A stretch of 64,000 nucleotides of DNA from an uncultured Solirubrobacteraceae bacterium (GTDB lineage: Bacteria > Actinomycetota > Thermoleophilia > Solirubrobacterales > Solirubrobacteraceae): assembly GCA_964588985.1 (NCBI GenBank), contig CAZPQW010000016.1, forward strand, positions 1 to 64,000, written 5' to 3'. The position numbers and the translations under genes were made by a program. Below are positions 4,559-32,570 of this stretch, in pieces (within the stretch, counting starts at the first letter, position 1; every line of letters starts with the position of its first letter). The notes under the pieces are model-generated. The model was not told the DNA's origin and made no database searches. It saw only the letters and a program-made list of their open reading frames with translations.

Positions 4559-4664
4559 GCGGCGGATGCTACGCCGCGCTTAGGGTGGTTCAGTCGAGCG
4601 CTCTACTTCCTACTTCAAGGACACCCGGCGTCGTACACCAGAGCGCCCCCTCGGCAAAAGCGAA

Positions 4665-4713
4665 GCCGTCCGTCGGATGGTCGTCGCGAAGTCACGACCA
4701 TCCGACGGACGGC
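4665..4713 (-). terminator. 20-bp perfect hairpin after rplL
   Basis: GCCGTCCGTCGGATGGTCGT-9 nt loop-ACGACCATCCGACGGACGGC immediately 3' of the rplL stop. Confidence 0.75.
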
Positions 4714-4720
4714 GCAGCGC

Positions 4721-5110
4721 CTACTTCACCTCCACGCTAGCCCCAGCCTCCTCGAGTTCCTGCTTGAGCTTGTCGGCCTCCTCGCGGTCGATGCCCTCCT
4801 TGACGGGCTTGGGGGCCTCGTCGACGAGCGCCTTGGCCTCTTTGAGCCCGAGGCCGGTCGCCGCGCGCACGACCTTGATGACCTGGATCTTCTTGTCGCC
4901 TGCGCCCGAGAGGATCACGTCGACCGTGCTCGATTCTTCCTCCGCGGCCGCGTCGCCGCCACCGCCGCCACCCGCGGGCGCGGCAGCCGGGGCTGCCATC
5001 GCGGCGGCGGACACGCCGAACTCCTCCTCGAGCGCCTTGATCCGCTCGGCGAGCTCGAGCACCGAGATGCCCTTGAGCTCCTCGATCCAATCCTGTGTGC
5101 TGGTTGCCAT
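4721..5110 (-). CDS. rplL: 50S ribosomal protein L7/L12
   Basis: [36 protein letters not shown]. Confidence 0.99.
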
Positions 5111-5115
5111 GGTGT

Positions 5116-5922
5116 TCAGTCCTCCTTGGTGGGATTCGTCTCGGCGTCCTCGGGCTGAACCTCAGCCGAGACGTCCGCCTGGTTGTCGTCTGCTTGGGCC
5201 GGCTCGTCTGCCTCCGGCTCCCCCTCCGGGGACGATGCAGTCTGTGTCTCCGCGCTGGCCTCGGCCTCCGCGGGCGCCTCGGCCTCTGGCTCCTGCGCCG
5301 CCGGTGCGTCCTCGGCTGCGGGCTCCTCGGCCTTCGGCTCCTCCGGCGCGGGCTCCTCGGCCGCTGCCTCCGCGGCCGCGGGGGGAGCGCCGGCGGGGAT
5401 CTCGCCGGAAGCCTTCTTCTCGTGCACCTGGCCGAGGGCGACCGCGAGGCCGCCGATGAGAGCGCCGAGCGAGCGCACGAGACCGGAGATGGGCGAGGCG
5501 ACGACGCCGACGAGCTGGCCGTAGAGGACCTCACGCGAGGGCAGGCGCGAGAGCGAGCGGATCTGCTCGACGTCGAGCGCAGAGCCTTCCATCAGCCCGC
5601 CCTTGAAGGGCAGCAGCTGGGTCGCTTTGGCGTAGTCGGCGAGCGTCTTGGCCGCGGTGGCCGCGTCGCCACGCACGAACGTCAGTGCGGTCGGGCCGGC
5701 GAGGTAGTCCTTGAGCGCCTCGGCGCCCACCTGGTCGGCGGCGCGCTCGGTGAGCGAGTTCTTGACCACCTTGAAGGTGGCGTCGGCGTCGCGGAGCTTG
5801 GTGCGCAGCTCGGCTACCTGCGCGACGGTGATGCCTCGGTAGTCGACGGCGAAGATCGCCTCGGACTGCTCGATGTTCTCGGCGATCTCAGCGATCGCCA
5901 CGGCCTTTTGGTCTCTGTTCAT
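5116..5922 (-). CDS. rplJ: 50S ribosomal protein L10 with long acidic C-terminal tail
   Basis: [27 protein letters not shown]; operon position. Confidence 0.97.
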
Positions 5923-5929
5923 TTGGGGC

Positions 5930-6010
5930 TCCTATCCCGGTCTTACACCGCTGGCCGATCTTCGATCGTCAGCGCGTTTGCCGGGGTTCTTCGGTGGCCT
6001 GTAGGAAGAT
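5930..6010 (-). promoter_or_regulatory. Possible L10 leader (rplJ autoregulatory RNA)
   Basis: Structured rplA-rplJ spacer at the canonical L10-leader position; fold not verified. Confidence 0.4.
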
Positions 6011-6013
6011 GCG

Positions 6014-6745
6014 CTAGGCGGCGATCGTCGCCGCGGGCGCCTCCTCGAGGATTTCACGTGTACGGCTGGTGTCGACCTTCACGCCCGGACCCATCGTCGA
6101 GGCGACGGTGATCGAGCGCAGGTAGCGGCCTTTCGCTGCCGACGGCTTTGCGCGGATGAGCTCTTCGACCACCGCTGCGTAGTTCTCGAGCAGCGTGCGG
6201 TCCTCGAAGCTGGCCTTGCCGATCACCAGGTGCACGATCGCGGTGCGATCGGTGCGGTATTCGACCTTGCCGGACTTGGACTCCTGGACCGCTTTGGCGA
6301 CGTCCATCGTGACCGTGCCGACTTTCGGGTTCGGCATCTTGCCGGACGGGCCGAGGATGCGCCCGAGCTGACCGACGACGGACATCATGTCGGGGGTGGC
6401 GATCGCGACGTCGAAGTCGTCGAAGCCCTCCTGGATCCGTTTGGCGAGGTCCTGGGCGCCCACGACGTCGGCGCCGGCCTCTTCGGCCTCGCGCGCCTTG
6501 TCGCCCTGTGCGAACACCGCGATCTTGACGTCTTTGCCGAGCCCGTTCGGGAGCGCGATCGTGCCGCGCAGCTGCTCGTCGGCGTGACGCACGTTCAGCC
6601 CGGTGCGGACGTGGACCTCGATCGACTCGTCGAATTTGGCGTTCGTCAGGGAGCGCACGAGCGCGATCGCCTCGGCGGGCGCGTATTCGCGCTCGCGGTC
6701 GACCTTCGTGAGGCTCTCGGAGTAGCGCTTGCCGTGTTTGCTCAT
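6014..6745 (-). CDS. rplA: 50S ribosomal protein L1
   Basis: [37 protein letters not shown]. Confidence 0.99.
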
Positions 6746-7167
6746 GATGTGACGTCAACTCCCATCGAGCGCGCGGTGCCGGCGATGATCTTCGAGGCCT
6801 GCTCGACGTCGTGCGCGTTGAGGTCGTCGAGCTTGCGCGCGGCGATCTCGCGCAGCTGGTCCTGGGTGATCGTGCCAACCTTCACGCGGTTGGGCTCGCC
6901 CGAGCCCTTGTTGATTTTGATCGCCTGGCGGATCAGCACCGCGGCGGGCGGGGTCTTGGTGACGAACGTGAACGAGCGGTCCTCGTAAACGGTGATCACC
7001 ACCGGGATGACCGTCCCCGTTTCGCTCTGCGTCTGCGCGTTGAACGCCTTGCAGAACTCCATGATGTTGATCCCGTGCTGACCCAGCGCAGGGCCGACCG
7101 GCGGGGCGGGGCTCGCCTGCCCGGCGTTCGCCTGCAGCTTGATAGTCGTCAAAACCTTCTTAGCCAT
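6742..7167 (-). CDS. rplK: 50S ribosomal protein L11
   Basis: [32 protein letters not shown]. Confidence 0.99.
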
Positions 7168-7689
7168 TTAGAGCTTCTTCACTTGATCGAATTGGACCTC
7201 TACAGGGGTCTCCCTGCCGAAGATTGATACCAGCACCTTGAGCCGCGAGGCGTCCTCGTTGATCTCGGAGATCTCGCCGGAGAAGTCCGACAGCGGCCCG
7301 GAGACCACCTTGACGGACTCGCCGATCGTGAACTGGGCGCGGGTGCGGGTCGCGGTGGCGACCTCCTTGTGCAGCAGGCGGTCGACCTCCATCTGGGTCA
7401 GCGGCACGGGCTCCTGGGAGGCGCCGACGAACCCGGTCACGCCGGGGGTGCCCTTGACCACGCCCCAGGAGTCCTCGTTGAGCTCCATGTTCACGAGCAC
7501 GTAGCCCGGCATGGTGCGCTTCTCGACGGTGACCTTCTGGTTGTCCTTCATCTCCGACACCGCTTCGGTGGGGACGACCACGCTGCGCACCGCGCGCTGC
7601 TGGCCGAGGGAGATGAGCCGGTGCTCGAGGTTGTGCTTGACCTTGTTCTCGTGACCGGAGTATGTGTTGACGACGTACCAGCGAAACAT
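7168..7689 (-). CDS. nusG: Transcription termination/antitermination factor NusG
   Basis: WYVVNTYSGHENKVK..PGYVLV..SIFGRETPVE. Confidence 0.98.
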   Translation of the reverse strand: MFRWYVVNTYSGHENKVKHNLEHRLISLGQQRAVRSVVVPTEAVSEMKDNQKVTVEKRTMPGYVLVNMELNEDSWGVVKGTPGVTGFVGASQEPVPLTQMEVDRLLHKEVATATRTRAQFTIGESVKVVSGPLSDFSGEISEINEDASRLKVLVSIFGRETPVEVQFDQVKKL

Positions 7690-7767
7690 TCAGAGACTCC
7701 TGTGCTGCATTTCGAGGGAGCGGAAGAAGAAGATGGATGTGAGAGAGCGGTCTGACGTCATCGGACG

Positions 7768-8313
7768 TCAGAGGATGAATTCGACGAGTTCCTTGGCTAC
7801 ATAGTCGGCGAGACCGAGGTACGCGCCCGCGATGGCGACGAAGCCGAGCACGACCGCGGTCGCCTGGCTGACCTGCCGGCGGTCGGGCCACTGCACGCGC
7901 TGGAGCTCGGCCCAGCTGGCGCCGAGAAAGCCGATCGCGCGGTTGCCGCCGCGCAGTGGAGCACCGGAGGGACGCTCGAGGTCGCCGCCGCCCCCTCCGT
8001 CGTCGCTGCCGCCACCGCCGCCTTTACCGGCAGCGCCGCCTCCACCCGAGCCACCGGCCGGAGCCTGGATCTCGTCGCGCGTCGCGAGCCCGTCGCCATT
8101 GGTGTCCTGCAGCTCGCTGTCGGGCGTGACGGTGACGCCGCCCGCGCCGCGCACGAGCGCGGCGTCGAACTCGTCGACGTCTCCAGAGGCGTGCTCGAGC
8201 GCCCCGGGGACGTCCGTCCGCACGGGCTGGCTGGGCACGGCCTCGACGCGGCCACCGGCCGTCGTGCCTCGCCGAGCGCGGCGTTGCTTTGCACGTTTGC
8301 GGTCACGAGCCAC
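7768..8313 (-). CDS. secE: Preprotein translocase subunit SecE with long disordered N-terminal extension
   Basis: C-terminal ELQRVQWPDR motif plus one TM helix; between rpmG and nusG. Confidence 0.92.
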   Translation of the reverse strand: MARDRKRAKQRRARRGTTAGGRVEAVPSQPVRTDVPGALEHASGDVDEFDAALVRGAGGVTVTPDSELQDTNGDGLATRDEIQAPAGGSGGGGAAGKGGGGGSDDGGGGGDLERPSGAPLRGGNRAIGFLGASWAELQRVQWPDRRQVSQATAVVLGFVAIAGAYLGLADYVAKELVEFIL

Positions 8314-8328
8314 AGCAGCGCTCCCGCG

Positions 8329-8493
8329 CTAGCGAGTCTCCCGATGGCTGGTGTGCTTGCGACACCAGCGACAGTACTTGCGCAGCGACACCCGGTCGGG
8401 GTTGTTGCGCTTGCTCTTGTTTGTCTGGTAGTTGCGATGCTTGCACTCCTCGCAGGCGAGGGTGATAGCAATTCGAACGTCTCCGCGGGCCAT
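8329..8493 (-). CDS. rpmG: 50S ribosomal protein L33 (Zn-binding form, two CxxC pairs)
   Basis: [38 protein letters not shown]; start moved to the ATG at 8493. Confidence 0.98.
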
Positions 8494-8702
8494 GATCAAA
8501 AATCCCTGCGTCGGTGTGGAAGCGACCCCGGGCGAAGAAAAACCCCGCCCAGGCGCGAGGTCCAAGCAGTCTAGCGCGCTTTTCGTCTCGTGTGATTCGC
8601 CCGCTCCGATGCGGCCCTAGCAGGGACCGGGAACCTAGACTCGAAACCCGCAAGCGAGCGACGCTGCGGCCGCCGACCCGCCCATCAGAGAAGGAGACAC
8701 CC

Positions 8703-9467
8703 ATGCACCTGCCCGAGCCGATTCCCCCCGTCGTCCACGACGAGTCCTTCGCCGGAGTCACCTACCACATACGCGGGGAACTGGTTCCCGAGCTGCAGAT
8801 CGAGATCTCCAACCAGTCGGTGATGTTCGAGCACCACGTGCTGCTGTGGAAGGAAACGCAGCTCAACATCGAGCTGAAGAAACTGCCGGGCGCGATCAAG
8901 CGCAAGATCGCCGGCCTCGAGTTCTTCGTCACGAAAACCTCCGGCACGGGGCGGATCGCGTTCTCGCGCGACTCGCCCGGCCAGTGCATCCCGCTGCACC
9001 TGCGCCAGGGCGAGGGGCTGGACGTGCGCGAGCACCAGTTCATCGCGGCGACCGACAACCTCGACTACAGCTTCGAACGGATCAAGGGCGTGCAGAACAT
9101 GCTCCTCGGCGGCTCGGGCTTCTTCATGGACAAGTTCCGCGCCACCGACGGCGACGCGCTGGTGTGGCTGCACGGTCACGGCAATGTGTTTCTAGTGCAG
9201 CTGATGGAGGGCGAGCAGCTCGACGTGGAGGCCGGCGCATGGCTCTACAAGGACCCGTCGGTGAAGCTCGAGGCGGTCACCATGGGGTTGAAGACGGGCA
9301 TCTTCGGCGGCGGCGGAAAGCTCACGTGGAATCGCTTCACGGGGCCCGGCCGACTGGCCATCCAGACGATGTTCATCGCGCCGATGGAGGGCATCGAGAG
9401 CCCCGCCACCGCGGCCGGCGCCGGCGGGGTCGCGGGCGCGCTGATCTCGGGGCTGGTGCGCGGCTGA
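8703..9467 (+). CDS. AIM24/DUF124 family protein
   Basis: AAGGAG SD before ATG 8703; GGSGFFM, WLHGHG and FTGPGRLAIQTM motifs. Confidence 0.85.
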   Translation: MHLPEPIPPVVHDESFAGVTYHIRGELVPELQIEISNQSVMFEHHVLLWKETQLNIELKKLPGAIKRKIAGLEFFVTKTSGTGRIAFSRDSPGQCIPLHLRQGEGLDVREHQFIAATDNLDYSFERIKGVQNMLLGGSGFFMDKFRATDGDALVWLHGHGNVFLVQLMEGEQLDVEAGAWLYKDPSVKLEAVTMGLKTGIFGGGGKLTWNRFTGPGRLAIQTMFIAPMEGIESPATAAGAGGVAGALISGLVRG

Positions 9468-15340: not shown

Positions 15341-15588
15341 CGTCAGCCAAGCCTAGCGCGCCCCACGCCCACCCCACACTCGTCGGGAAGCGGCATCCCC
15401 AACCGCCGATTCTGGTATCACTCCGCACATGATCCGTCGGACCGGAATATCGACCGTTGGACGATATGGCTCGGCGGTGGGGGTAATCACGCAGCGAAAC
15501 TGTCGACACAAACGCAACGCACGGGAGGCTTAGCGTAGGTGAGGGGAGGCGGAACGGATCTCCGTTCCGATGGGAGTCGTATAGGTCC

Positions 15589-16836
15589 TTGGGAGTCAAA
15601 TTGAGCCAAAAGCTTGAGGGTCTCACGGCCACCGCGGGTGACACCGCCGTGGTCGAGATCGAGGAGTTGCAGGGGATCATCAGCGAAGGTCAGGAAAAGG
15701 GATTCCTGGCGGCCGACGTACTCATCGCGGCGGTCGAGGAGGCGGAGCTCTCGCCTCAGCAGACACACGACCTGTTCAGCTATCTGGAGGAGCACGGGAT
15801 CGACCTCGCCGGTGCAGGCGAGGCGACGGGAGAGCTGCACCCGGAGGGGCGCGAGCGTCCCGCCACCGAGCAGCCCGACGCACCGGCCGGCGACGGCGCG
15901 GAGCTTGCGAGCGTCGAGCACGACGAGGTCGAGGACCGCGACGAGCAGATCCAGGGCCTGCACTCGCGCCTGGAGGATCTCAAACGGCCCGACATCGACC
16001 TCACGGTCGAGCCGAGCCTCGACTCGCTGCGGCTGTACCTGCGCTCGATCGGGCGGGTGCCGCTGCTGAGCGCCGAGGAGGAGGTCGCGCTCGCGAAGCG
16101 CATCGAACGCGGCGACGTCGCCGCCAAGCAGCACATGGTCGAGGCCAACCTGCGCCTCGTCGTGTCGATCGCCAAGGGCTACGTCGGACGTGGCCTCACG
16201 CTGCTCGACCTGATCCAGGAGGGATCGCTCGGGCTGATCAGGGCGGTGGAGAAGTTCGACCACCGCCGCGGCTACAAGTTCTCCACCTACGCCACCTGGT
16301 GGATCCGCCAGGCGGTCACCCGCTCGCTCGCCGACAAGGGACGCACCATCCGCATCCCCGTGCACATGGTCGAGCGGCTCAACAAGCTCATCCACGCCGA
16401 ACGCAGACTCATCCAGCAGCTCGGGCGCGAGCCCAACCCCGCGGAGCTCGCCGAGGAGCTCGAGTGCACCGTCCGCGAGGTGCGCGACGTGATGCGCATC
16501 ACCCAGCAGCCGATCTCGCTCGAGAAGCCGGTCGGCGAGGAGGACGACTCCTCGCTCGCCGACTTCGTCGAGGACGCAACCGCCGAGTCGCCGTTCGAGA
16601 TCGCCTCCGAAGCGCTGCGCAGGGAAAACGTCACGCGCGTGCTCGCGTGCCTGCCGCGGCGCGAGCGCGAGGTGATAGAGATGCGCTACGGAATCGTCGG
16701 CGGGCGCTCGCGCACCCTCGAGGAGGTCGGCCGCGCGTTCAACATCACCCGCGAGCGCGTCCGCCAGATCGAGAACCGCACGCTCAAAAAGCTGCAGACG
16801 CTGCCCGACGCGCAGCCGTTGCGCGAGGCCTCCTAG
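15589..16836 (+). CDS. RNA polymerase sigma-70 factor, RpoD/RpoS-like paralog
   Basis: [49 protein letters not shown]; start uncertain. Confidence 0.93.
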
Positions 16837-16915
16837 CCTCGAGCAGCCTCAATCGCAGGCCGTCCCGCGCGGCGGCCTGCGAGCAACATCGGAAGGCCCT
16901 AAACTGACGGCCCCT

Positions 16916-16997
16916 GGCGGGGTTCCCGAGCGGTCAAAGGGGACGCGCTGTAAACGCGTTGGCTCTGCCTTCGCAGGTTCGAATCCTGCCCCCGCCA
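16916..16997 (+). tRNA. tRNA-Tyr(GTA)
   Basis: Acceptor stem GGCGGGG/CCCCGCC, anticodon arm CGCG-CTGTAAA-CGCG, long variable arm, GGTTCGAATCC T-loop; CCA not encoded. Confidence 0.97.
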
Positions 16998-17268
16998 TCT
17001 CGATGCGCCGACGGACATGGAGGTCCAGTCGCGGAAGATCCGGCCAACGCCCGAGAACATTAGGCTTTCCGGTGGGCTTCTGGGAGTCATGGGGATGGCT
17101 CGCTGCGCGCAGACGGTTCTGAGCAGGAGCATTTCGGGAGCAGAGCTGGCTCGGGATCGGGAGCATCGGAAGCAAAGGCCGTCGAGGGACGCGCGTCGAG
17201 GACGAAAAGAGGGCGCTAAGTGCCGAATATCACGCTGAACCGTCGAGCCTCCGTGTCACACTGCGGGC

Positions 17269-18249
17269 ATGGCGGAGGAGCCGATCAAGATTGATTCCGA
17301 CTGGCTCAGGATCGATGTCGAGTCTGTTGAGATAGGCGACCCCGAGCCGGATGGCACGCGGTCGCTTCGGGTCCGCTTCTCAAAGGCTCGCTACAAGCTC
17401 CAGGAGGACGGGAGCGTGCGTGACATTCAGACCAACGATGTCTTCCCGCCCGAGGTCTGGGAGAGTGCGATCAGTCAGATACTCAACGCGGTCGCCAACG
17501 GGCCGACCATCGAGTCGCCCAAACGCCAGGACCTCTACGAGAGACTTCAAGAGCGCTCGGAGGCAGTCGGCTACGCCCTTGAGCACCCCGAGTCGATCGA
17601 GCAGCCGCAGTCGCCGGAGAACCCGCTGGCCGATTTGGTCGGCTCTGAGGTAGCGGTCGCCGCCCTGTGCATCGATCTTGTCGGCTCGACCCAACTGCAA
17701 GCGAGCAATCCCGATGCCTACGGGCGGATCGTCCCGCTGCTGCTGCGCGAGCTTGCCCAGATCGTTGGGGACTGCGATGGGGTGATCGTCAACTTCACGG
17801 GCGATGGTCTGATCGCGGCCTTCGACGGCCACGGCATCTCGATCGCTGCCTGCGACGCCGCGATACATGCCGCCTCGGTCATGGTCGCGGTCGTCTACAC
17901 GGCGCTAAACGTGCAACTTGAACGTCACGGCCTGCCCGCCGTCGATATCCGCATCGGAGCCGACGCTAGCGAGGCGTCGGTGCGCGTCGTTGGCAGCGCG
18001 GCCTCCCGTACTCAGCCCGACGTGTACGGGATGGCTCTCACGATGGCAGCAAAGATTCAGGCCGTCGGTGCGCCCGGCGAGGTCTGGATAGGTGAAAGGC
18101 TCCACGGCCACCTGCACGTCAATAACCAAGTGACCTGCGTACCCGTGGAGCCGCCTGCTAGCTGGCGCTTCGTCAACGGCGGCAACTGGGCCTACAAGCT
18201 CTACGCGATCCCTGTGCGATCGTGGGTAGCAAGGCCCGAGGCTGCCTAA
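17269..18249 (+). CDS. Class III nucleotidyl cyclase domain protein with unknown N-terminal domain
   Basis: CIDLVGST, NFTGDGLIAAF, IRIG, DVYGMALTMAAKIQ, GEVWIGE. Confidence 0.88.
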   Translation: MAEEPIKIDSDWLRIDVESVEIGDPEPDGTRSLRVRFSKARYKLQEDGSVRDIQTNDVFPPEVWESAISQILNAVANGPTIESPKRQDLYERLQERSEAVGYALEHPESIEQPQSPENPLADLVGSEVAVAALCIDLVGSTQLQASNPDAYGRIVPLLLRELAQIVGDCDGVIVNFTGDGLIAAFDGHGISIAACDAAIHAASVMVAVVYTALNVQLERHGLPAVDIRIGADASEASVRVVGSAASRTQPDVYGMALTMAAKIQAVGAPGEVWIGERLHGHLHVNNQVTCVPVEPPASWRFVNGGNWAYKLYAIPVRSWVARPEAA

Positions 18250-18391
18250 CGCAGCCGTGCTAACAGCAGCGTTCGGCTGGCTTCCTGACCGGAATCGCTA
18301 GGTGCTTGACCTGTTTCGCCGTAAATGACCCACCTACAGTGATCATGGTCGAGGGACACTGGCGCAGGTGGCCTCGCGGACCGTCGTGGCC

Positions 18392-19216
18392 TCAATAAAC
18401 GGGCGTTCCAGCGAGGTCCGACTGCACAACAGGTGCCGCCAAGCCGTACCGCAAGCACACCTTCTTCACGAGTTCGGCTAACCATGCGGGTGCTGCTGGC
18501 GACACATGTACGCGCTCGATAAGGCGGTCAAGATCCACTGAGACTCTGACCCCCTGGGGGACCTGCTCATCGGGGTCAACACATCGCTCATCGCGCTCAC
18601 CGTCAGCCGCCTGACGGCTGCAGTAGACCGCGCGCAACTCGCCCTCGAACTCAAAGCTATGCCGCTTGTGAACAAACGGGGCCAAAGCGTTACCTTCTGG
18701 AATCCAGTCCGCGTCGTAGTCCATGTACTGAACCCGTCCTATGTAGACACGTGGCGTTGGATCGCTTTCCGGCAAGCTTTCAATCGGTCCGAAAGCGCTC
18801 CTCAGTCGCTCAAAAGTCGAGCGAATCGCTACCCCTCCAGTCGGTGGTACGTACAAGCCCCAAAGTGCCGCGCTCTCGCGCTGGTTCATACTCCAGCAGT
18901 TGATAAAGGTCTCACGCCGGGCCTTTAGTCGCATCTCGGCGAGAAACGACCACATCGCGTCCAGGTTCTCTGTAGCTACAGGCTGCTTGTAAAGCTCCGG
19001 GTACATCAATGGCCTCACCAGCGGGTTCACGCGGGACAAGCTCCCCTCGAAAGGATCACTCAGGCGCTCGGCGCATGCGAAGAATAGGGATTGGGTGTCG
19101 AGCATGGATACAAGCTTCGTGAAGTCGATGTAGCGCCAGACGACCGCTTGAAGATCTTCGGGCGGCGTAAACACGGGATGCTCTGTGTAGCGGAGGTCTA
19201 GCGGCTCGATTTCCAT
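18392..19216 (-). CDS. DUF2971-like protein
   Basis: VWRYIDFTKL..LSDPFEG..INCW..ESAALWGLY..KRHSFEFEGELR..VHVSP. Confidence 0.75.
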   Translation of the reverse strand: MEIEPLDLRYTEHPVFTPPEDLQAVVWRYIDFTKLVSMLDTQSLFFACAERLSDPFEGSLSRVNPLVRPLMYPELYKQPVATENLDAMWSFLAEMRLKARRETFINCWSMNQRESAALWGLYVPPTGGVAIRSTFERLRSAFGPIESLPESDPTPRVYIGRVQYMDYDADWIPEGNALAPFVHKRHSFEFEGELRAVYCSRQAADGERDERCVDPDEQVPQGVRVSVDLDRLIERVHVSPAAPAWLAELVKKVCLRYGLAAPVVQSDLAGTPVY

Positions 19217-19667
19217 AGGCAGAACCTATCGCGTGCGGGCGGCAGTCTCGCTCAACAGCGGGCCTCAGGCGGGCGGTATTGACTTCGACGCCGTAAACGG
19301 CCGAACGGTCCTTTATTGCTGGGGATCCACCGCATCGCGTCGCCGGGAACGCTAACCGCTTTGCTGGGTTTCGCATTTCAGCGAGACGGGTTTCTTCTTT
19401 CGTTGTGGCGGCTTCCTAGGCCACTTGATGCAGGCCACTTCGCCGCTGCCTCAGATCGTCACACAGATGATCTCGGCGTTGCTGCGGCCGGACGTACAAC
19501 CCAGCCAGCATATATCGTTCCCAGGCGATTGTCCCGGACCGCCGACTCATCCCAATTACCGATCAAAGTCAGGCACGGTTCCGATGCGGCCCCATTCCCA
19601 TTTGAGAGCGTTCATCTTCCAAGGCACACAGAAGGCGGGGGCCGACGCTGCCGAGCATAGCCGTGCG

Positions 19668-20069
19668 ATGGGCGAACTGGTGTTGACGAAGGAGCAGCAG
19701 CTCGAGCACGATCATCTATATAGCTGCCTGTCGGTTCTCGATGGCAAGGCCGCGGCGCTCCTACAGTTCGACTCGATCCTCATCGCGACATCGACGATCG
19801 TGCTGTCGCTCCTAGAAGCCGGAGTAGATGCGAGTTCTGTAGCAGTGGCGGCAGCACTGATCTTCGCCACCATCTCGTCTGCGACGACTCTTGCCGTCAT
19901 AACTCTATTCTGGACTGAGGCTTCCGACCTCAGCACGCCGGATGTCTACCTGCACCATCTACTTGGCGTTCGCGATCAAAGAACCGTCCGCTATCGACTC
20001 GCGTGGCTCGCCGCATGGGTGTCTCTTGCCGCTCTGGTGATCGGAGCGATCTTGAACCGCGTACTCTGA
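19668..20069 (+). CDS. Small 3-TM membrane protein resembling Pycsar effector (PycTM/DUF5706-like)
   Basis: LDGKAAALLQFDSILI..TM..TM..RTVRYRLAW..TM; start set to ATG 19668. Confidence 0.65.
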   Translation: MGELVLTKEQQLEHDHLYSCLSVLDGKAAALLQFDSILIATSTIVLSLLEAGVDASSVAVAAALIFATISSATTLAVITLFWTEASDLSTPDVYLHHLLGVRDQRTVRYRLAWLAAWVSLAALVIGAILNRVL

Positions 20070-20089
20070 GGCTGCCACCAACAGTAGGC

Positions 20090-20560
20090 TTACGTACCGA
20101 TGTCCTCTCGCCAGGCCTCCGGCCAGCGCTCTTGGAAGTCCCTCATCAGGGCAATGCAACGAGCATCGTTCAGCAGCGTCACCTCTACCCCTCGAGCTTT
20201 GAGATAGTCGATCGCGCCGGGAAACGTCACGGCCTCCCCGACTACGACGCGAGGAATGCCGAACAGCAACACCGCACCGGTGCACATGTCGCACGGAGCG
20301 AGCGTGCTGTAGAGGGTCATGCGCCGATAGTCCCTCCTTCTGCCAGCGTTCCTGAGACAGGCAACCTCACCGTGCGCGATCGGATCGCCCCGCTGAATTC
20401 GCTCATTGTGACCAACGGCGACAAGCTCGCCGTCAGCACCCAGCGCAGCGCCGATTGGTATACCGCCTTCGCTCAGGCTCTTCTGTGCCTGCCGGTATGC
20501 CTCTTCGAATATCGCCCGCTCGCCGGGGTCGAGGACGTTCATGTCTTTCCTTTGTCGCAT
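20090..20560 (-). CDS. Zn-dependent nucleoside/cytosine deaminase (yeast Fcy1-like)
   Basis: HGEVACL..TLAPCDMC..WREDIG. Confidence 0.93.
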   Translation of the reverse strand: MRQRKDMNVLDPGERAIFEEAYRQAQKSLSEGGIPIGAALGADGELVAVGHNERIQRGDPIAHGEVACLRNAGRRRDYRRMTLYSTLAPCDMCTGAVLLFGIPRVVVGEAVTFPGAIDYLKARGVEVTLLNDARCIALMRDFQERWPEAWREDIGT

Positions 20561-20695
20561 TGCCTGGGAGTGAGCGTCGCCGACCGCTGGTCAAGCGTCA
20601 ATTGATGACGCGTGAACCGCGCTGCGGTCACCGTAGCTGCTTGGCTGGTCATATTGCGGGGACGAATCCACGGGAAGGGCGCTCACGACAAGGCG

Positions 20696-20723
20696 CAGTC
20701 CTCGACCCTCAGTCCTCGACCCT
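20696..20723. repeat. 14-bp tandem duplication
   Basis: CAGTCCTCGACCCT x2. Confidence 0.8.
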
Positions 20724-20854
20724 CTTGGTTTGCACTGACGGCCCAGTCGGCCCCCGCCACTGCAGCACACTCAGAGCGCTGTGGAGTCTGCGGATGTTGT
20801 GCCAGGTCTCGATGTAACCGTGCAAATCAAAAGCAATGATATAGAATTACACGG

Positions 20855-22018
20855 ATGATCAAGCGACGCGTGGGTGCTGAAGTCGCCGAGCTGCTGGACC
20901 ATGTTCCGGCCGTCGCCCTCCTGGGACCGCGGCAGTCGGGCAAGACGACGCTGGCCCTCGAGATCGCCGAGAGGCGGCCATCGGTGTACCTGGACCTCGA
21001 GTCCGCCGCCGACCGCGCCCGCGTCTCCGAGCCGGCCCTGTACTTCGCCGACCACACGCACGAGCTCGTGATCCTCGACGAGATACACCGTGCCCCTGGC
21101 CTGTTCGAAGCACTGCGCGGCGTAATCGACCAGGGCAGGCGCGAAGGCAGGGGGGTCGGCCGGTTCCTGCTGCTCGGCTCCGCCGCGATCGACCTGCTGG
21201 CGCAGTCGGGCGAGAGTCTCGCGGGGAGGATCGCGTTCGTCGAGCTCGCGCCGTTCGACATCACAGAGGTCGGCGCGGCCGAGCTGGACCGGCTCTGGGT
21301 CCGCGGAGGATTCCCCGACAGCCTTCTCGCGGCTAGCGACGCGACCAGCCTGCGCTGGCGACAGGACTTCATCCGCACATACCTCGAGCGCGAGATTCCG
21401 CAACTCGGCCCACGCATCCCGGCCGAGACACTGCGACGGCTGTGGACGATGTTCGCGCACCATCAGGGCGGCCTGCTCAACGCCGCGCAGCTCGCACGCG
21501 GACTCGGCGTGAGCGGGGCAACGATTGCCCACTACCTCGACCTGATGGTCGACCTGCTGCTCGTGCGGCGCCTGCCACCCCACCTATCAAACGCCGGCAA
21601 GCGGCTCGTGCGCTCACCGAAGGTCTACATACGCGACAGCGGCCTCGTGCACGCGCTGCTCGGCCTGCCCGACAAGGAGACGCTGCTCGGACACCCAGCG
21701 GCCGGAGGAAGCTGGGAGGGCATGGCAATCGAGAACCTACTCGCCGCGGCAGGGCCACAAGCTCAGGGGAGCTTCTACCGCACAAGCCACGGTGCGGAGG
21801 TCGACCTCGTCCTCACCTGGCCCAACGGCGAGGAGTGGGCAATCGAGATCAAGCGCAGCCTCGCGCCGACCCCCGAGCGCGGCTTTCACTCCGCCCTCGC
21901 CGACCTCAACCCCAAGCGCGCACTCATCGCCTACCCCGGACCAGACCGCTACCCCCTCGCGCCGACAATCGAAGCGATCGGCTTGGCAGAGCTATGCGAA
22001 CAAACACAGGCAAGCTGA
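20855..22018 (+). CDS. AAA_14 ATPase with DUF4143 C-terminal domain
   Basis: GPRQSGKTT, ILDEIH, GGFP, KVYIRDSGL, EVDLV..IEIK. Confidence 0.93.
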   Translation: MIKRRVGAEVAELLDHVPAVALLGPRQSGKTTLALEIAERRPSVYLDLESAADRARVSEPALYFADHTHELVILDEIHRAPGLFEALRGVIDQGRREGRGVGRFLLLGSAAIDLLAQSGESLAGRIAFVELAPFDITEVGAAELDRLWVRGGFPDSLLAASDATSLRWRQDFIRTYLEREIPQLGPRIPAETLRRLWTMFAHHQGGLLNAAQLARGLGVSGATIAHYLDLMVDLLLVRRLPPHLSNAGKRLVRSPKVYIRDSGLVHALLGLPDKETLLGHPAAGGSWEGMAIENLLAAAGPQAQGSFYRTSHGAEVDLVLTWPNGEEWAIEIKRSLAPTPERGFHSALADLNPKRALIAYPGPDRYPLAPTIEAIGLAELCEQTQAS

Positions 22019-22818
22019 GCCGCGTTCCTCTCAGACGACGTGGGACTGAACTGGTCTCGGCCGCGCGCGGTCTGAATCGACACCCGGCGCTCCTCGAAGC
22101 GGCCAAACGAACGCGAGAGCGGCTGCTGGGTGACGAGCAGTTCATCGACCGGCTGTCCACGGCTCGCGGTCGCCCAGCCGACCTCGCCACTCGCGAGCTC
22201 AGCACGCTCAGAGGCGACGCTCCAGGTGTGCTGGGCGAGCTCGGCCTCACCGCTCTGCAGGCCTGGCAGGCACTCGCCGAGAACCGGGGTCGCGGTCGCG
22301 GCGAGGTCGATGTCGCGATCATGTTCACCGATCTCGTCGGGTTCTCCAGCTGGTCGTTGCAGGCGGGAGACGACCTGACGATTGCGCTTCTGCGCGACGT
22401 CAGCGACGCGATCGAGCCACCGATCCTGGAGCGCAGGGGTGAGGTGGTGAAGCGTCTCGGCGATGGCTTGATGGCCGCGTTCTGGGACGCATCCAGCGCC
22501 ACCGAGGCCGCCTTCGAGGCGTGCGAGCGCGTCTCCTCGATCGAGATACCCGACTACCGTCCCCGGCTGCGGACCGGCATCCACCTCGGTCGTCCACGCA
22601 AGATCGGAGGCGACTACTTCGGCGTCGACGTGAACATCGCGGCGCGCCTCGTCGAAGCCGCCGAGCCCGGGGAGATCCTCCTCTCGGAGAGCGCCATGCG
22701 GTCACTCGGCGCGTTCGAGGTGAGCGCGACGGAGCGGCGCATCACAGCGAAGGGCGCCCCCGCGAATCTCCTCGCACACGCGGTGCAACAACCGCTTGGC
22801 GCCTCCACAAGGCCGTAG
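21994..22818 (+). CDS. Adenylate cyclase (class III, canonical motifs)
   Basis: MFTDLVGFS, VKRLGDG, DYFGVDVNIAARL; start uncertain. Confidence 0.85.
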   Translation: MRTNTGKLSRVPLRRRGTELVSAARGLNRHPALLEAAKRTRERLLGDEQFIDRLSTARGRPADLATRELSTLRGDAPGVLGELGLTALQAWQALAENRGRGRGEVDVAIMFTDLVGFSSWSLQAGDDLTIALLRDVSDAIEPPILERRGEVVKRLGDGLMAAFWDASSATEAAFEACERVSSIEIPDYRPRLRTGIHLGRPRKIGGDYFGVDVNIAARLVEAAEPGEILLSESAMRSLGAFEVSATERRITAKGAPANLLAHAVQQPLGASTRP

Positions 22819-24650: not shown

Positions 24651-26123
24651 TCAGGCGACCGGAGCCAGCGCCTCCGGCACGCGCACCGCGCGCAGGTCTC
24701 CATCCGGCTCGCGCACGATCCCCGCGGCACTCACCTGCGGCCACGGCGCACCCGGCCGCGCGAGGTGGAAGCCCTGCACGAGCGGCACACCGAGCCGCCG
24801 CACCGCGTCGAGCTCCCCCGCCGTCTCCACTCCCTCGGCCACGAGCAAACTGCCGACCTGCTTGGCGTAACCGGCGAGCGCGCCCACGAGCGCGGCACGC
24901 TCACCGTCGCCGTCGATACCGGCGACCAGCGAGCGGTCGAGCTTGAGGTAGGCGGGACGGACGGAGGTGATCTGGCGCAGCCCCGAGTAGCCCGCGCCCA
25001 TGTCGTCGACCGCGAGGCTCACGCCACGCGCCCGCAACGGCGCGATGACGACCTGCAGCTGCATGTCGCTGTGGACGAGCGTCTCCTCGGTGACCTCCAC
25101 GATCAGCCCCCGCAGGTCGTCCTGCCCGCGCGCGCCGACGCGTTCGAGCATGTCGATGGTGCGGTCTTCGAGCAGCACGGGCGCGGACAGGTTGAGCGAG
25201 AGGCTCGTCCCTGCCGGACGGCGCGCATACAGCTCGAGCGCCAGACGCAGGCACGCGCGCTCGAGCGCCGGGCGCTCCCCGAGCTGCTCCGCGAGCGCGA
25301 ACCAGTGCAGCGGGCTTCCGTCCATGCCTGGCTGGGAGAAGCGCGCTAGCGCCTCGTATGCGTGCACCGTGCCGGTGCGGATGTCCACGATCGGCTGCAC
25401 CGCCATCGACAGCCCCTCGCCTAGCAGCAGCTGCGCGAGCGCGCCTTCCGCGAGCGCCATGTCGCCACCCGCAAAGCCCTCGCCCGAGGGACGCGCGGGC
25501 GCCCCTCCCTCCCCCGCGTTCGCGCGCCCGCTGCGCTCAGCCACGCGCGCGGCGATGTCCCCGGCGAGCAGCAGCGTCTCGGCGCTGTCGGCCTGCAGGC
25601 GCGCCTGGCGCAGCAGCAGGTTGAGCTCGTTGGTGAGCCTGCCCGCGGTGAGCAGGAACGCGACCGTGGCGACGCACATCGCGGCGTAGTCGCCGTGCAG
25701 GTAGCCCGCGCGCGCGATCGGCAGCGCGAGCGCGCCCAACACGATCGTGCGGCCCATCCAGTGCACTCGCCCGCCGCGCGCGAGCACGCCGCTCGCGACC
25801 GCCACCAGCCACAGCAGGCTGAGCACGTTCACCCACTGCCCGCCGAAGCCGATCAGCAGCACGCCCGCGCTGCCGGCGAGCGACTCCTCGACGCTCAGCC
25901 ACCGAAGCCGGGGCGCGGCGAGCTGCACACCGGCGGTGAGGGCGATCGTCGCGAAGGCGATGAGCCCGAGCGTCGGATGCGGAAGCAGGCTCGACTGGGA
26001 GAGAACCAGCGCGATGCCGACGAAACCCACGGCGACGCGCGTCGTCGCGGCGGTCCTGCGTGCGCGCAGGATGTGACCGCCCGTCTCGATCGGTACAGGA
26101 GCGGCTAGCAACTCCATCGTCAC
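24651..26123 (-). CDS. Membrane-anchored EAL c-di-GMP phosphodiesterase
   Basis: YEALARF, DDMGAGYS, KLDRS, AEGVE, QGF; N-terminal TM helices. Confidence 0.92.
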   Translation of the reverse strand: MTMELLAAPVPIETGGHILRARRTAATTRVAVGFVGIALVLSQSSLLPHPTLGLIAFATIALTAGVQLAAPRLRWLSVEESLAGSAGVLLIGFGGQWVNVLSLLWLVAVASGVLARGGRVHWMGRTIVLGALALPIARAGYLHGDYAAMCVATVAFLLTAGRLTNELNLLLRQARLQADSAETLLLAGDIAARVAERSGRANAGEGGAPARPSGEGFAGGDMALAEGALAQLLLGEGLSMAVQPIVDIRTGTVHAYEALARFSQPGMDGSPLHWFALAEQLGERPALERACLRLALELYARRPAGTSLSLNLSAPVLLEDRTIDMLERVGARGQDDLRGLIVEVTEETLVHSDMQLQVVIAPLRARGVSLAVDDMGAGYSGLRQITSVRPAYLKLDRSLVAGIDGDGERAALVGALAGYAKQVGSLLVAEGVETAGELDAVRRLGVPLVQGFHLARPGAPWPQVSAAGIVREPDGDLRAVRVPEALAPVA

Positions 26124-28983: not shown

Positions 28984-29984
28984 TGGGCGAGAACGGCATC
29001 GAGGTGCAGGGCCTGGTGCGCGACTTCAAGGGCGGCGTGCGGGCAGTCGACGGGATCGACCTGCACGTCTCCCCCGGCGAGATCTACGGCTTCCTCGGTC
29101 CGAACGGCGCAGGCAAGTCGACGACGGTCCTGGTGCTCACGACGCTGCTGCCGCCCACGTCGGGCACCGCGCGCGTGGCGGGGCTAGACGTGGTCCGCCA
29201 GGGCGCGGAGGTGCGTCGCGCGATCGGCGCCTCGCTGCAGGAGTCGGCGCTCGACCCGTTCCTGACGGGCCGCGAGCACATGCGCCTACAGAGCGCGCTG
29301 CACGGCCTCGGCAAGGCGGAGCGCGAGAAGCGAGGCACGGAGCTGCTGGAGCGCGTCGGGCTGACCGATGCGGCAGACCGCAAGGTGGGCGGCTACTCGG
29401 GCGGGATGAAGCGCCGCCTGGATCTCGGTCTCGCGCTGGTGCACGGCCCGCGGCTGCTGTTCCTCGACGAGCCAACCACGGGCCTCGACCCTCAGAGCCG
29501 CGCGGCGCTGTGGGACGAGGTGCGCCGCCTGGCGAACGACGGCGTGACGGTGTTCCTCACGACGCAGTACCTCGAGGAGGCGGACGTGCTCGCCGACCGC
29601 GTGGGGATCATCGACCGCGGCAAGATCGTCGCGGAGGGCACGCCCGCCGAGCTGAAGGCGGCGATCGGCCGCCCGAGCGTCGAGGCGACGCCCGCGGACC
29701 CGGGCGACCGCGAGCGGTTGACGGCGGTGATGGGACGCTTCGGCGAGCCCGCGGCGGCATCGCCGAACGGCGTCGCGGCGCGACTGCCGGAGGGCGTGGG
29801 CGACCTCGCGGAGATCGTGCGCACGCTCGACGCGGAGCACATCCCGATCGCGGACCTGCGCCTGCACACCCCCACCCTCGACGACGTGTTCCTGGCCAAG
29901 ACGGGGCGCTCGCTGGAGGGCGCGGGCGACGGCGCGGACGCGGGCCCGGAGGAAGAGCGGGCGACGACGGCGGTGGGCTCGTGA
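28983..29984 (+). CDS. ABC transporter ATP-binding protein (DrrA-like)
   Basis: GPNGAGKST, YSGGM, FLDEPTTGLDP. Confidence 0.95.
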   Translation: MGENGIEVQGLVRDFKGGVRAVDGIDLHVSPGEIYGFLGPNGAGKSTTVLVLTTLLPPTSGTARVAGLDVVRQGAEVRRAIGASLQESALDPFLTGREHMRLQSALHGLGKAEREKRGTELLERVGLTDAADRKVGGYSGGMKRRLDLGLALVHGPRLLFLDEPTTGLDPQSRAALWDEVRRLANDGVTVFLTTQYLEEADVLADRVGIIDRGKIVAEGTPAELKAAIGRPSVEATPADPGDRERLTAVMGRFGEPAAASPNGVAARLPEGVGDLAEIVRTLDAEHIPIADLRLHTPTLDDVFLAKTGRSLEGAGDGADAGPEEERATTAVGS

Positions 29985-30760
29985 ACGGCTCGCACGCGAC
30001 CCAGATCGGCGTGCTGGCGAGGCGCTCGATGCTGAAGACGCTGCGCCAGCCGTTTCAGATGTTCCCAATCGTGTTCTTCCCGCTGATCCTGCTGGCGGTG
30101 AACGCGAGCGGCCTGCGCGCGGCGACGCGCCTGCCCGGCTTCCCCACCCACTCCTACATCTCCTTCGCGATCGCGGTGGCGTTCATCCAGGGAGGCATGT
30201 TCGCGCTGATCAACACCGGCACGAACCTCGCGGAGGACATCGAGAGCGGCTTCTTCAACCGCCTCGCGCTGACGCCGCTGCGGCGCGTGTCGCTGATCGC
30301 GGGGCTGCTGGTGGGCGTGGCGGCGCTCGGCGTGCTGCAGTCGGGCGTGTACATCCTGATGGGCGTGATCGCGGGCGCCCACCTCGAAGCGGGCGTGGGC
30401 GGGGCGCTCGTGATCCTCGCGCTCGGCTCGCTCACGGCGGTCGGCTTCGGCGCGCTCGGTTGCGCGGCGGCTCTTCGCACCGGTTCGGGCGAGGCGGTGC
30501 AGGGCCTCTTCCCCCTGTTCTTCGTGTTCATCTTCCTGTCGTCGAGCAACCTCCCGCGCAACCTGCTGCGGACGGGCTGGTTTCACACGGTCGCGACCTG
30601 GAACCCGATCTCGTACCTGATCGAGGGCTTCAGAAGCCTTTTCATCTATGGATGGGATGGCGCGGCGTTGTGGCGTGGCTTCGCGGTGGCGATCGGGCTG
30701 ACGCTTCTGGCTCTCCTCGCGGTGGCCGGGGCTATGAACACCAGAATGCAACGGACATGA
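29981..30760 (+). CDS. ABC-2 type permease
   Basis: Multi-TM, WNPISY motif, translationally coupled. Confidence 0.9.
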   Translation: MNGSHATQIGVLARRSMLKTLRQPFQMFPIVFFPLILLAVNASGLRAATRLPGFPTHSYISFAIAVAFIQGGMFALINTGTNLAEDIESGFFNRLALTPLRRVSLIAGLLVGVAALGVLQSGVYILMGVIAGAHLEAGVGGALVILALGSLTAVGFGALGCAAALRTGSGEAVQGLFPLFFVFIFLSSSNLPRNLLRTGWFHTVATWNPISYLIEGFRSLFIYGWDGAALWRGFAVAIGLTLLALLAVAGAMNTRMQRT

Positions 30761-31548
30761 GCGGCACACGTGTGACCGGCGGTGGGATCTGGCGCGTGGC
30801 GGGCACGATCGCGTGGCGCAGCCTGCACACGTACGTGCGCCGGCCGGACCTGTTCGTTCCTTCGCTGGTGTTCCCGCTGATCTTCCTCGCGAGCTTCGCG
30901 GGCGGGCTGTCGGCGCTGGGCTCGGTGCCGGGCTTCCACTTCCCGGCGGGCTACACGGCGTTCCAGTTCGTGTTCGTGCTGTGCCAGTCGGCGATGTTCG
31001 CGGGGCTGTTCACGGGCTTCACGCTCGCGTTCGACTTCGAGAGCGGCTTCGCGCGGCGGCTGATGCTCGCGGCGGAGGACCGGCGCGGGATCGCGCTCGG
31101 CTATGCGCTGGTGGCGCTGTCGCGCGCGGCGATCACCCTGAGCGTGGTCACCGCGGTGGCGGTGGCGACTGGGATGCGGGTGACGGGCGACGGCGTGGAC
31201 GTGTTCGGGCTGTATGGGCTGGCGGCGCTGCTGGTGCTGGTGGGCTATGGCTGGGCGGCGGGCGTGGCGTTCCGCTTCCGCTCGATCCAGGCGGGGCCGC
31301 TGATGCAGACGCCGGTCTTCCTGATCATCTTCCTCGCCCCGGTGTACGTGCCGCTGGGGCTGCTCAAAGGCTGGATTCACACGGTGGCGAGCGTGAACCC
31401 GGCGACCGCCTTCCTGGAGGCCGGCCGCGGACTGATCTCGGGCGTGCACGACCACACGGCGCTCGCGTACGTGTGCGCGGTGGCGCTGATCGGGCTGTTC
31501 GGGATCTGGATGCTGCTGGGGCTGCGCAGCGCCGAACGCTCGACCTAG
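30757..31548 (+). CDS. ABC-2 type permease
   Basis: Multi-TM, VNPAT motif, ATGA overlap. Confidence 0.9.
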   Translation: MSGTRVTGGGIWRVAGTIAWRSLHTYVRRPDLFVPSLVFPLIFLASFAGGLSALGSVPGFHFPAGYTAFQFVFVLCQSAMFAGLFTGFTLAFDFESGFARRLMLAAEDRRGIALGYALVALSRAAITLSVVTAVAVATGMRVTGDGVDVFGLYGLAALLVLVGYGWAAGVAFRFRSIQAGPLMQTPVFLIIFLAPVYVPLGLLKGWIHTVASVNPATAFLEAGRGLISGVHDHTALAYVCAVALIGLFGIWMLLGLRSAERST

Positions 31549-31607
31549 TGTTCACGGAGCCCTCGACTGGGCTCGCGCCGCAAGGCTTTAAGTCCTAGTC
31601 AGAAACA

Positions 31608-31952: not shown

Positions 31953-32031
31953 GCGCGAAGCGTATCCGGCTTGCAAACGCGGCCAATGGGGGTAGAACGA
32001 GGGAGAGGAAATCGAGCGAAGGGAGCGGGCG

Positions 32032-32475: not shown

Positions 32476-32482
32476 CGATGAC

Positions 32483-32570
32483 GACAGTTGTCAGCACGAT
32501 AGTCTTGCGTTTATAAATCGAAGCCTGCAGACAGTTCGGAGACGCCTCAGACCTTACGAGACATCTGTCT
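32483..32570. promoter_or_regulatory. GACA-N2-TGTC palindromic operators upstream of the XRE gene
   Basis: GACAGTTGTC (32483-32492) and AGACATCTGTCT (32559-32570). Confidence 0.55.

Follow-up and report, generated by a model that had tools for sequence, protein, structure and literature searches.

A predicted N-terminally extended, PycC-like cyclase carried solo on a short, horizontally spread gene module in Solirubrobacterales

Here, we describe a predicted nucleotide cyclase gene and its surroundings in a 64,000-nt stretch of DNA (the window) from an uncultured Solirubrobacteraceae bacterium (GenBank assembly GCA_964588985.1, contig CAZPQW010000016.1, positions 1 to 64,000 of the forward strand; coordinates are those of the window unless a locus is named). 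The gene encodes a protein of 326 amino acids in which a class III cyclase domain follows a family-specific N-terminal domain, and together with two short conserved flanks it forms a module; no other DNA of the window is shared by all of 12 related loci (Table 1). A first-pass annotation, made from the letters alone, had marked the open reading frame (ORF) as a class III cyclase that may make an unusual cyclic nucleotide. We tentatively read the gene as a solo, mobile offshoot of the N-terminally extended, PycC-like accessory cyclases of Pycsar, an account to which we give somewhat less than an even chance.

The ORF holds a real cyclase domain and not a chance resemblance. Pfam finds a single domain, PF00211 (Guanylate_cyc; residues 130-290, 34.4 bits against a cut-off of 21.9), and the AlphaFold2 model of the 326-residue protein (predicted local distance difference test score (pLDDT) 81, predicted template modelling score (pTM) 0.75) superposes in VIA on class III cyclases of known structure, with Z scores of 20-22 for residues ~114-321 and with Z 22.1, a root-mean-square deviation of 2.5 A and 188 aligned residues against 3r5g. 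Foldseek ranks EaPycC (8jsf, a cytidylate cyclase) first (E-value (E) 1.6e-12, 251 columns). In VIA, however, the adenylyl cyclases CyaB and CyaC, the guanylyl cyclase Cya2 and the pyrimidine cyclases BcPycC and EaPycC tie in Z, and therefore the fold cannot separate a PycC from an adenylate cyclase. The best NCBIfam match, LipJ, is weak: it has E 2.8e-5 and reaches 23 bits, where the cut-off is 800.

Residue equivalences were taken from HMMER alignments to solved cyclases, and the motif positions were verified by translation. Both metal-binding Asp residues are intact, D136 in DLVGST and D179 in GDG, and the adenine-selecting Lys is replaced by Asn, given that N175 aligns with the Lys of 3mr7 (KTTGDG); it also aligns with the guanine-selecting Glu of the guanylyl cyclase Cya2 (2w01, DEFMGDG). 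The transition-state NxxxR of class III cyclases reads TxxxK, with T258 and K262 opposite the N and R of 3mr7 (VNVAARLE), and the active uridylate cyclase 8jsz likewise has Lys for Arg at this position (NMAAKL). The canonical adenylate specificity pair of Lys and Asp is thus incomplete, with N175 instead of the Lys and Asp retained at the second position; this residue, D251, lies seven residues ahead of T258, which we take to be the canonical D-x6-N spacing. The neighbouring cyclase at 21994-22818 is canonical at both sites (KRLGDG, VNIAARL). The first-pass annotation had thus described these motifs correctly. The cyclase looks catalytically competent.

Table 1 Features of the cyclase module and of its surroundings in the window.
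Feature	Position	Strand	Basis or remark
Coding sequence, 326 amino acids: family-specific N-terminal domain and class III cyclase domain	17269-18249	+	
N-terminal domain, residues 1-113	17269-17607	+	alignment, model
Class III cyclase homology domain, residues ~114-321	17608-18231	+	PF00211, structural matches
D136, first metal-binding Asp, in DLVGST (17674-17691)	17674-17676	+	D in 104/104 family sequences
N175, adenine-selecting Lys position, in NFTGDG (17791-17808)	17791-17793	+	HMMER alignment
D179, second metal-binding Asp, in GDG	17803-17805	+	D in 104/104 family sequences
D251, second base-specifying position, Asp retained; DVYGM at 18019-18033	18019-18021	+	
TMAAK: T258 at transition-state Asn position, K262 at Arg position	18040-18054	+	
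Shared gene module, the one stretch that recurs in all 12 related loci	17196-18340	+	blastn
Conserved 5' flank, presumed promoter and leader, near-invariant columns from ~17214	17196-17268	+	flank alignment
Conserved 3' flank, no convincing structure	18250-18340	+	flank alignment
tRNA-Tyr, conserved border of a variable island that starts with the cyclase module	16915-16999	+	
Candidate-defence ORF PDC-S31, 274 amino acids	18392-19216	-	PADLOC, E 1.8e-18; no Pfam match
Membrane ORF, hydrophobic helices in C-terminal half, start codon uncertain	19425-20069	+	
Zinc deaminase of the cytidine/deoxycytidine monophosphate (CMP/dCMP) type	20090-20560	-	PF00383, 70.5 bits; TadA-like in NCBIfam, with 70 bits where the cut-off is 150
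AAA_14 and DUF4143 ATPase, PDC-S01	20855-22018	+	PADLOC, E 5.4e-88

The N-terminal domain had been put at ~120 residues and called unrecognised; at ~113 residues it remains so. Residues 1-124 give no Pfam match at E<=10, no NCBIfam match of the whole protein at E<=0.1 covers this part, the ESM Atlas holds no usable neighbour, and the model finds no fold match (Foldseek best E 0.87; VIA-wide best Z 3.3 against 48,161 chains), which does not establish the domain as a new fold. Modelled alone (residues 1-125; pLDDT 75, pTM 0.48), it is predicted to form a beta-meander (strands within 17-59) followed by two long helices (61-77 and 86-105). Six conserved residues, R14, D16, R41, Y42, D52 and R96, are all present in the window protein, are invariant in a 12-row family alignment, and recur in 88, 93, 95, 94, 94 and 89, respectively, of 104 aligned sequences. 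The domain may be a sensor.

A profile search of 1.84 billion representatives returned 236 clusters at E<=1e-30, from bacteria and archaea. The best 150 of these 236 are mostly 300-350 amino acids long and cover profile positions ~5-315, and the representative of the window's own cluster, 93% identical, scores 449.6 bits on the family profile. By a word-indexed search we obtained 62 relatives, about two dozen of which are 300-330 amino acids long and align nearly full-length, including the N-terminal part. The named members, from Planctomycetota, a Nitrosopumilaceae archaeon and a Haloterrigena plasmid, are annotated only as 'adenylate/guanylate cyclase domain-containing protein'. Fusions were sought with Pfam in eight longer members, which gave PF00211 only, plus one weak DUF892 match.

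For a residue census we used 104 full-length sequences, namely the 103 of the best 150 representatives that are 290-400 amino acids long and the window protein. D136, G178 and D179 are each present in 104/104, R228 in 92/104, and W299 and Y309 of the C-terminal hairpin in 81/104 and 96/104. The position of the transition-state Arg is occupied by K in 101, R in 2 and N in 1, and by this count Lys-for-Arg is a hallmark of the family. The transition-state Asn position is more varied (N 62, S 32, T 3), the adenine-Lys position has K in 87, N in 11, S in 3, D in 2 and R in 1, and the second specificity position has D in 92 and E in 7. The adenine-type K/D pair is therefore the family default, and N175 and T258 are minority states. 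The window protein carries the marks of the family (K262, W299, Y309 and a length within 300-350 amino acids).

Among relatives down to 42% identity, NFTGDG is invariant, as are the metal-binding Asp residues, GDG, R228 and K262. The window protein forms a clade with P0013 and P0014 (support 99 in the Shimodaira-Hasegawa-like approximate likelihood ratio test (SH-aLRT)), and within this subclade N175 is fixed. On the family tree, the Lys position is labile: Asn at the Lys position needs five changes, at least three of them forced by well-supported branches; N175 is, on this tree, a derived minority state that has arisen several times. Whether proteins with Asn at the Lys position also tend to lose the transition-state Asn was examined, and the idea was rejected, with no signal in independent tree pairs.

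A quick maximum-likelihood tree was built from 65 cyclase domains, comprising 26 family members, 6 PycCs and 33 other cyclases from fetched loci. The 26 family rows were hand-picked (23 protein ids, of which 9 came from the first search and 14 from the 150 representatives, and 3 read from loci), and loci of two unpublished genomes and domains with fewer than 110 profile positions were left out. A single branch (SH-aLRT 89) sets off all 26 family rows, and 31 multi-domain cyclases of actinobacteria form a separate clade (SH-aLRT 98). The window's cyclase domain falls outside that clade, on a tree whose sample of housekeeping enzymes is narrow; the relation between the family and the PycCs has a support of no more than 73. 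The gene is a member of a distinct family, as yet without a name, of PycC-like cyclases with an N-terminal extension.

The 12 related loci (L009-L020) come from 8 Solirubrobacterales species genomes and 4 metagenomes. When window positions 15500-21000 were compared with them by blastn, the only match ran from 17196/17221 to 18253/18334 (~1.12 kb) at 84-94% nucleotide identity. In the all-against-all comparison, the core extends from about -55/-62 to +1060/+1073 relative to the start codon, that is, ~80-92 nt past the stop, with ragged edges; L010, L011, L012, L016, L017 and L018 share further 5' sequence, up to -110 to -210, and L010, L011, L012 and L016 share 3' sequence to about +1190. Two pairs of loci are syntenic (L009/L019 and L012/L016). 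Among ten window proteins, the cyclase alone recurs in the 12 loci, besides two stray weak matches, and outside the cyclase footprint no ORF family is found in more than 4 of the 13 loci, that one lying in the extension of the 3' flank. When five carrier genomes are compared with the window's, identity is 89-94% for the cyclase and 66-80% for the RpoD-like sigma factor. The cyclase is thus far more alike than the sigma factor, which indicates recent horizontal spread.

The company of the gene changes from locus to locus. Among the 100 flank ORFs of the 12 loci, Pfam finds integrases in L011 and L019, a TrwC relaxase and type IV secretion system (T4SS) coupling proteins in L012 and L018, and a HerA/TrwB-like ATPase in L016. 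RES-Xre, TacA/GNAT and Gp49/HTH pairs occur in L011, L013 and L019, RelA_SpoT and PIN in L009, DUF4365 in L010, ComM/DprA, HTH and M78 genes in L014, and ParAB with a tRNA-Ile in L015. PADLOC, run on 53 of the 100 ORFs, assigns some to defence families, either established or candidate ones, and 6 of the 12 loci hold such a match.

Several readings of the module and its edges were tried and rejected. Transposon-like ends were dismissed, with no inverted repeat linking the module ends at seed 7, and so was an attC-like or otherwise structured 3' element: RNAalifold gives the 3' flank a weak fold (-9.8 kcal/mol) without covariation (covariation term +0.53), and Rfam yields tRNA alone. A phage origin was likewise rejected, with no match in a phage collection or in IMG/VR (two alignments). 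A simple scan found no sigma-70 promoter and no terminator at the module. An exact 10-nt direct repeat, GTCGAGGGAC, stands at 17181-17190 and 18348-18357, a few nucleotides outside both homology edges; it is probably due to chance, because it lies outside these edges and the surrounding 1.35 kb contains four more exact repeats of 10 or 11 nt.

Among 11 intact copies (55 pairs), the median ratio of non-synonymous to synonymous substitution rates (dN/dS) is 0.24 at a median dS of 0.21; the N-terminal part alone gives 0.28 and the cyclase domain 0.155. The ORF is intact in 10 of the 12 loci, i.e. in 11 of 13 copies with that of the window. These values point to purifying selection, somewhat relaxed, on a gene that is lost now and then. 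Contigs from four metatranscriptome runs (four studies) carry parts of the ORF or relatives 88-99% alike; they fit expression, and DNA carry-over is possible too. The absence of such cover over 17014-17241 and beyond 18325 carries no meaning.

The link to Pycsar comes from distant members of the family, for two of which the context is readable, and both adjoin a genuine PycC-PycTM (Pycsar) pair. On the Haloterrigena plasmid NZ_CP069189 (L026), a member 26% identical to the window's (BLASTP E 1e-28) lies at 5806-6783, divergent from a PycC (4998-5735) and a PycTM (4513-5001), the latter annotated as 'Pycsar system effector family protein' and matching PF18967 with 49.7 bits. In the low-G+C actinobacterium G118 (L041, contig C7), the order is an Mrr-like nuclease, PycC (6885-7709; PDLC02369, E 1.4e-71), PycTM (7715-8248; PF18967) and the family member (8254-9201), with an integrase next on the opposite strand. 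The search for distant members gave one plasmid match, and of 87 genomes from the class to which G118 belongs, 1 had a member. A further operon, in G086 (L051, C1:1332522-1336214), has the order PycC (PDLC02369), PycTM and second PycC (PDLC02367); L041 and L051 are thus two actinobacterial Pycsar operons with two cyclases around one PycTM, and the second cyclase differs in type. According to a 2026 preprint (10.64898/2026.08.12.744502), some Pycsar-1 loci carry multiple cyclases.

The first-pass annotation had named two PycC traits, a missing adenine Lys and a Lys in place of the transition-state Arg. The latter stands: Lys-for-Arg is found in both PycCs that adjoin family members and in 8jsz, and not in the canonical neighbour cyclase. 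The former does not hold as a trait, since the adenine-Lys position has D in 8jsz and in the PycC of G118 but K in the Haloterrigena PycC.

Matches to PycC models were of little use here. Ten PADLOC PycC models match the window protein, the best being PDLC02367 with 61 bits. In a control on 401 Actinomycetota genomes (E<=1e-12; the tally includes 12 unpublished genomes, on which nothing else here depends), 177 had a match to this model, and among the matches listed, ORFs of ~1000 amino acids score 67-81 bits and true PycCs 232-317. Leaving true PycCs aside, most of the matches listed fall in cyclase domains of longer proteins, with ORFs of 450-2100 amino acids. As PDLC02367 finds ordinary cyclases at 60-80 bits, lone matches in that range are uninformative.

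With PycCs, the window protein has in common the class III fold and the Lys for the transition-state Arg, and a family member holds the second-cyclase slot of a PycC-PycTM operon, as seen when L041 is compared with L051. It differs from them in its conserved ~113-residue N-terminal domain, which the PycCs at hand lack, in its score on PDLC02367 (61 bits, against 232-319 for true PycCs), and in that its clade has no PycTM or PycTIR partner in the scanned loci. The published specificity residues of PycCs are EaPycC F100/R142/Q144, AnPycC F60/K104/F109 and BcPycC Y50/D94/R97 (PMC11224242); these differ between clades, and none of the three sets matches C134/N175/T177/I182 of the window protein. 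In comparison with PucC of Pucsar, as presented in the preprint (10.64898/2026.08.12.744502), both cases speak for Pycsar-related cyclases that vary in base and can make purine 3',5'-cyclic nucleoside monophosphates (cNMPs), and both are listed as immune-type cyclases of mobile islands, here as a prediction. The Pucsar cyclases described there (cyclic GMP-forming and Pycsar-related) are, however, linked to TIR effectors with a cyclic-nucleotide-binding domain (CNBD-TIR) or to 3TM effectors, whereas the window's gene is solo.

Rv1900c/LipJ is another point of reference, given that 1ybt has the highest identity among the fold matches (22-25%) and LipJ is the best, though weak, NCBIfam match. Enzymes of this type are conserved, chromosomal and multi-domain, whereas the window's gene is sporadic, island-borne and horizontally spread, and has an N-terminal domain of its own. 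Rv1900c is reported to have an Asn/Asp specificity pair. It lacks the transition-state Asn, yet is an active adenylyl cyclase (PMC4886424). The module also resembles the moron-like cargo of prophages and integrative elements in being a self-contained ORF with short conserved flanks among unrelated mobile-element genes; unlike morons, it shows neither promoter nor terminator by simple scan and has no copy on a recognised phage. The full-text literature searched contains no description of the family or of effector-less mobile Pycsar-type cyclases; what comes closest is a single sentence in the preprint about loci with several cyclases, and the supplement of the preprint may list members.

In the window, the module is the first gene of a variable island. 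A 10.2-kb query finds at least a partial match in each of the 40 same-genus genomes searched, and among the matches listed, same-genus homology stops at ~16999-17002, at the tRNA-Tyr. In a comparison of five same-genus loci with the window, homology beyond the tRNA resumes at ~31620-32830 in three (G004, G452 and G012) and at ~29031-29732 in G013, and G015 has no match there; hence, the window from ~17000 to ~29000-31600 is a variable island. G+C falls to 0.597 at 18001-20000, and the G+C at third codon positions is 0.79 in the cyclase gene against 0.92-0.95 in upstream core genes. A full-length relative of the cyclase is found in 0 of 40 related genomes (24 of the same genus, 16 of the same order), and the family in 3 of 401 genomes of the phylum, in one as a fragment. 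With none in 24 same-genus and 16 same-order genomes, and the listed homology ending at the tRNA-Tyr, this is not a vertically inherited housekeeping cyclase. The 3' side of the tRNA-Tyr is a variable hotspot in the genus, and neither integrase nor att repeat was seen in the stretch read; an att site at the tRNA-Tyr was rejected, given that the tRNA 3' end is unrepeated anywhere in the window.

The genes that come next in the island are listed in Table 1. The PDC-S31 ORF converges on the cyclase gene, and none of the 12 related loci has it. The membrane ORF was considered as a PycTM and rejected: it has no Pfam, PADLOC or NCBIfam match, is unlike the Haloterrigena PycTM and is absent from the 12 loci. 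DNA resembling the PDC-S01 ATPase gene occurs at other places in G011, G443, G019 and G007. Further into the island, an ORF of 490 amino acids (24651-26123, minus strand) has hydrophobic N-terminal segments and, by eye only, a C-terminal part like EAL (cyclic di-GMP phosphodiesterase).

The anatomy of the gene, its family, its contexts, purifying selection and horizontal spread are established, and to these the offshoot reading adds what we infer of enzyme activity, dimerisation, trigger and immune role. The ancestral setting would be that of an extra (third) gene of PycC-PycTM anti-phage loci, as in the distant members. In the window's subclade, the adenine-selecting Lys would have become Asn and the gene would have left the operon, and a unit of flank, ORF and flank of ~1.1 kb would now move among integrative and conjugative elements and tRNA-side and defence or toxin-antitoxin islands of Solirubrobacterales. 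The N-terminal domain would sense a cue from a phage or other invader, a head-to-tail homodimer would cyclise a nucleoside triphosphate (NTP) to a 3',5'-cNMP, and this signal would act on a receptor unlinked to the gene. The Asn-for-Lys exchange, fixed in the subclade and recurrent in the family, is compatible with a shift in specificity. Cyclic AMP (cAMP) may equally be the product, because D251 is kept, K/D is the family default and active cyclases without the canonical Asn are known (PMC4886424). The earlier proposal of an unusual nucleotide is only partly supported: it is strengthened by the non-housekeeping, Pycsar-adjacent relatives and by Lys-for-Arg, and weakened by the family default, the kept D251 and the lack of an adjoining effector.

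A number of observations weigh against a Pycsar offshoot. The Pycsar link is based on just two contexts, the branching of the family with the PycCs has a support of just 73 on a tree with few housekeeping enzymes, and the PADLOC PycC matches had to be rejected as evidence of membership, given that ordinary large cyclases outscore the 61 bits of the window protein. No PycTM, TIR or cNMP-binding effector is found by Pfam among the 100 flank ORFs of the 12 loci, and none beside the window's copy by Pfam, PADLOC or NCBIfam; the window's genome (95.9% complete) has no PF18967 or PDLC02364 (PycTM) match. A weak PycTM match is present in just 2 of 8 other carrier genomes (32.8 and 29.4 bits), ~90-330 kb from the module if C2 and C3 are the module's own contigs. 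T258 stands for a residue that is important to catalysis in canonical enzymes, and no activity, trigger or phenotype is on record for any family member. The gene also decays: the L019 copy (7995-8969) has an internal stop, the L020 copy is partial at a contig end and probably frame-shifted (85% nucleotide against 56% amino acid identity), and the copy in G189, a genome from the same taxonomic family as the window, is split into two ORFs (L042, 7333-8180).

An ordinary adenylate cyclase, carried as mobile-element cargo and feeding cAMP into the host's cAMP/CNBD network to the element's benefit with no immune role, would account for several of these points, and we regard it as unlikely but a serious contender. 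The K/D majority of the family (K 87/104, D 92/104) and the kept D251 agree with it, as does the Asn/Asp pair reported for Rv1900c. Receivers exist, given that the host genome has 8 cyclase-domain matches and 3 proteins with a cNMP-binding domain, and neither in the window nor in the 12 loci does the gene have a dedicated effector linked to it. Active adenylyl cyclases that lack the Asn are known, with Rv1900c as an example (PMC4886424). Against it stand the relatives inside PycC-PycTM loci, a Lys-for-Arg exchange of the PycC type, repeated change at the Lys position within the family, and a gene that is sporadic, island-borne and horizontally spread. We consider it improbable that the gene is what is left of a Pycsar operon, in decay or inactive, and that its product is a pseudo-enzyme that has no function or does no more than bind nucleotide. 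The lost effector, the exchange of two of six canonical positions (N175 and T258) and the damaged copies in L019, L020 and G189 would suit such a remnant, but a cyclase-domain dN/dS of 0.155, 11 of 13 intact copies, the invariance of the metal-binding Asp residues, GDG, R228 and K262 down to 42% identity and a recent spread into at least 12 contexts would not.

Other roles on mobile elements fare less well. With an integrase, relaxase or T4SS coupling protein within 4-5 kb in 5 of the 12 loci (L011, L012, L016, L018 and L019), a solo gene and weak PycTM-like genes elsewhere in 2 of 8 carrier genomes, the enzyme could be a tool of counter-defence or of conflict between mobile elements, whose cNMP would act on the cNMP-gated effectors of the host or of rival elements by jamming them, emptying them in advance or setting them off falsely; we consider this very improbable, given that the literature searched offers no precedent and 7 of 9 carrier genomes, including the window's, have no PycTM match. 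Least probable of all is abortive infection by a single protein, in which the cyclase would drain the NTP pool on infection and need no receptor. A solo gene in defence-like islands and a sensor-like N-terminal domain would fit it, but the sequence gives no sign of very high turnover and T258 is expected to slow catalysis; no cyclase is known to work by NTP drain. The reading of the gene as an offshoot of Pycsar accessory cyclases can also be taken further, to a one-gene, self-mobile immune or counter-immune module with a new N-terminal sensor, a non-adenine cNMP and no dedicated effector, which would act via host cNMP-binding proteins or cNMP-gated effectors elsewhere and in which the Lys-to-Asn switches are changes of nucleotide. 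This stronger version is distinctly unlikely.

Pycsar has been understood as a cyclase together with an effector. Here, we describe a sizeable unnamed family of N-terminally extended cyclases, one lineage of which appears to have shed the effector, yet is kept under selection and is spreading between mobile elements. For practical purposes, matches to PDLC02367 alone should not be taken as Pycsar. If the solo enzyme is active, the question would be what an effector-less immune-type cyclase signals to, and whether the recurrent exchanges of the base-selecting Lys alter which nucleotide is made.

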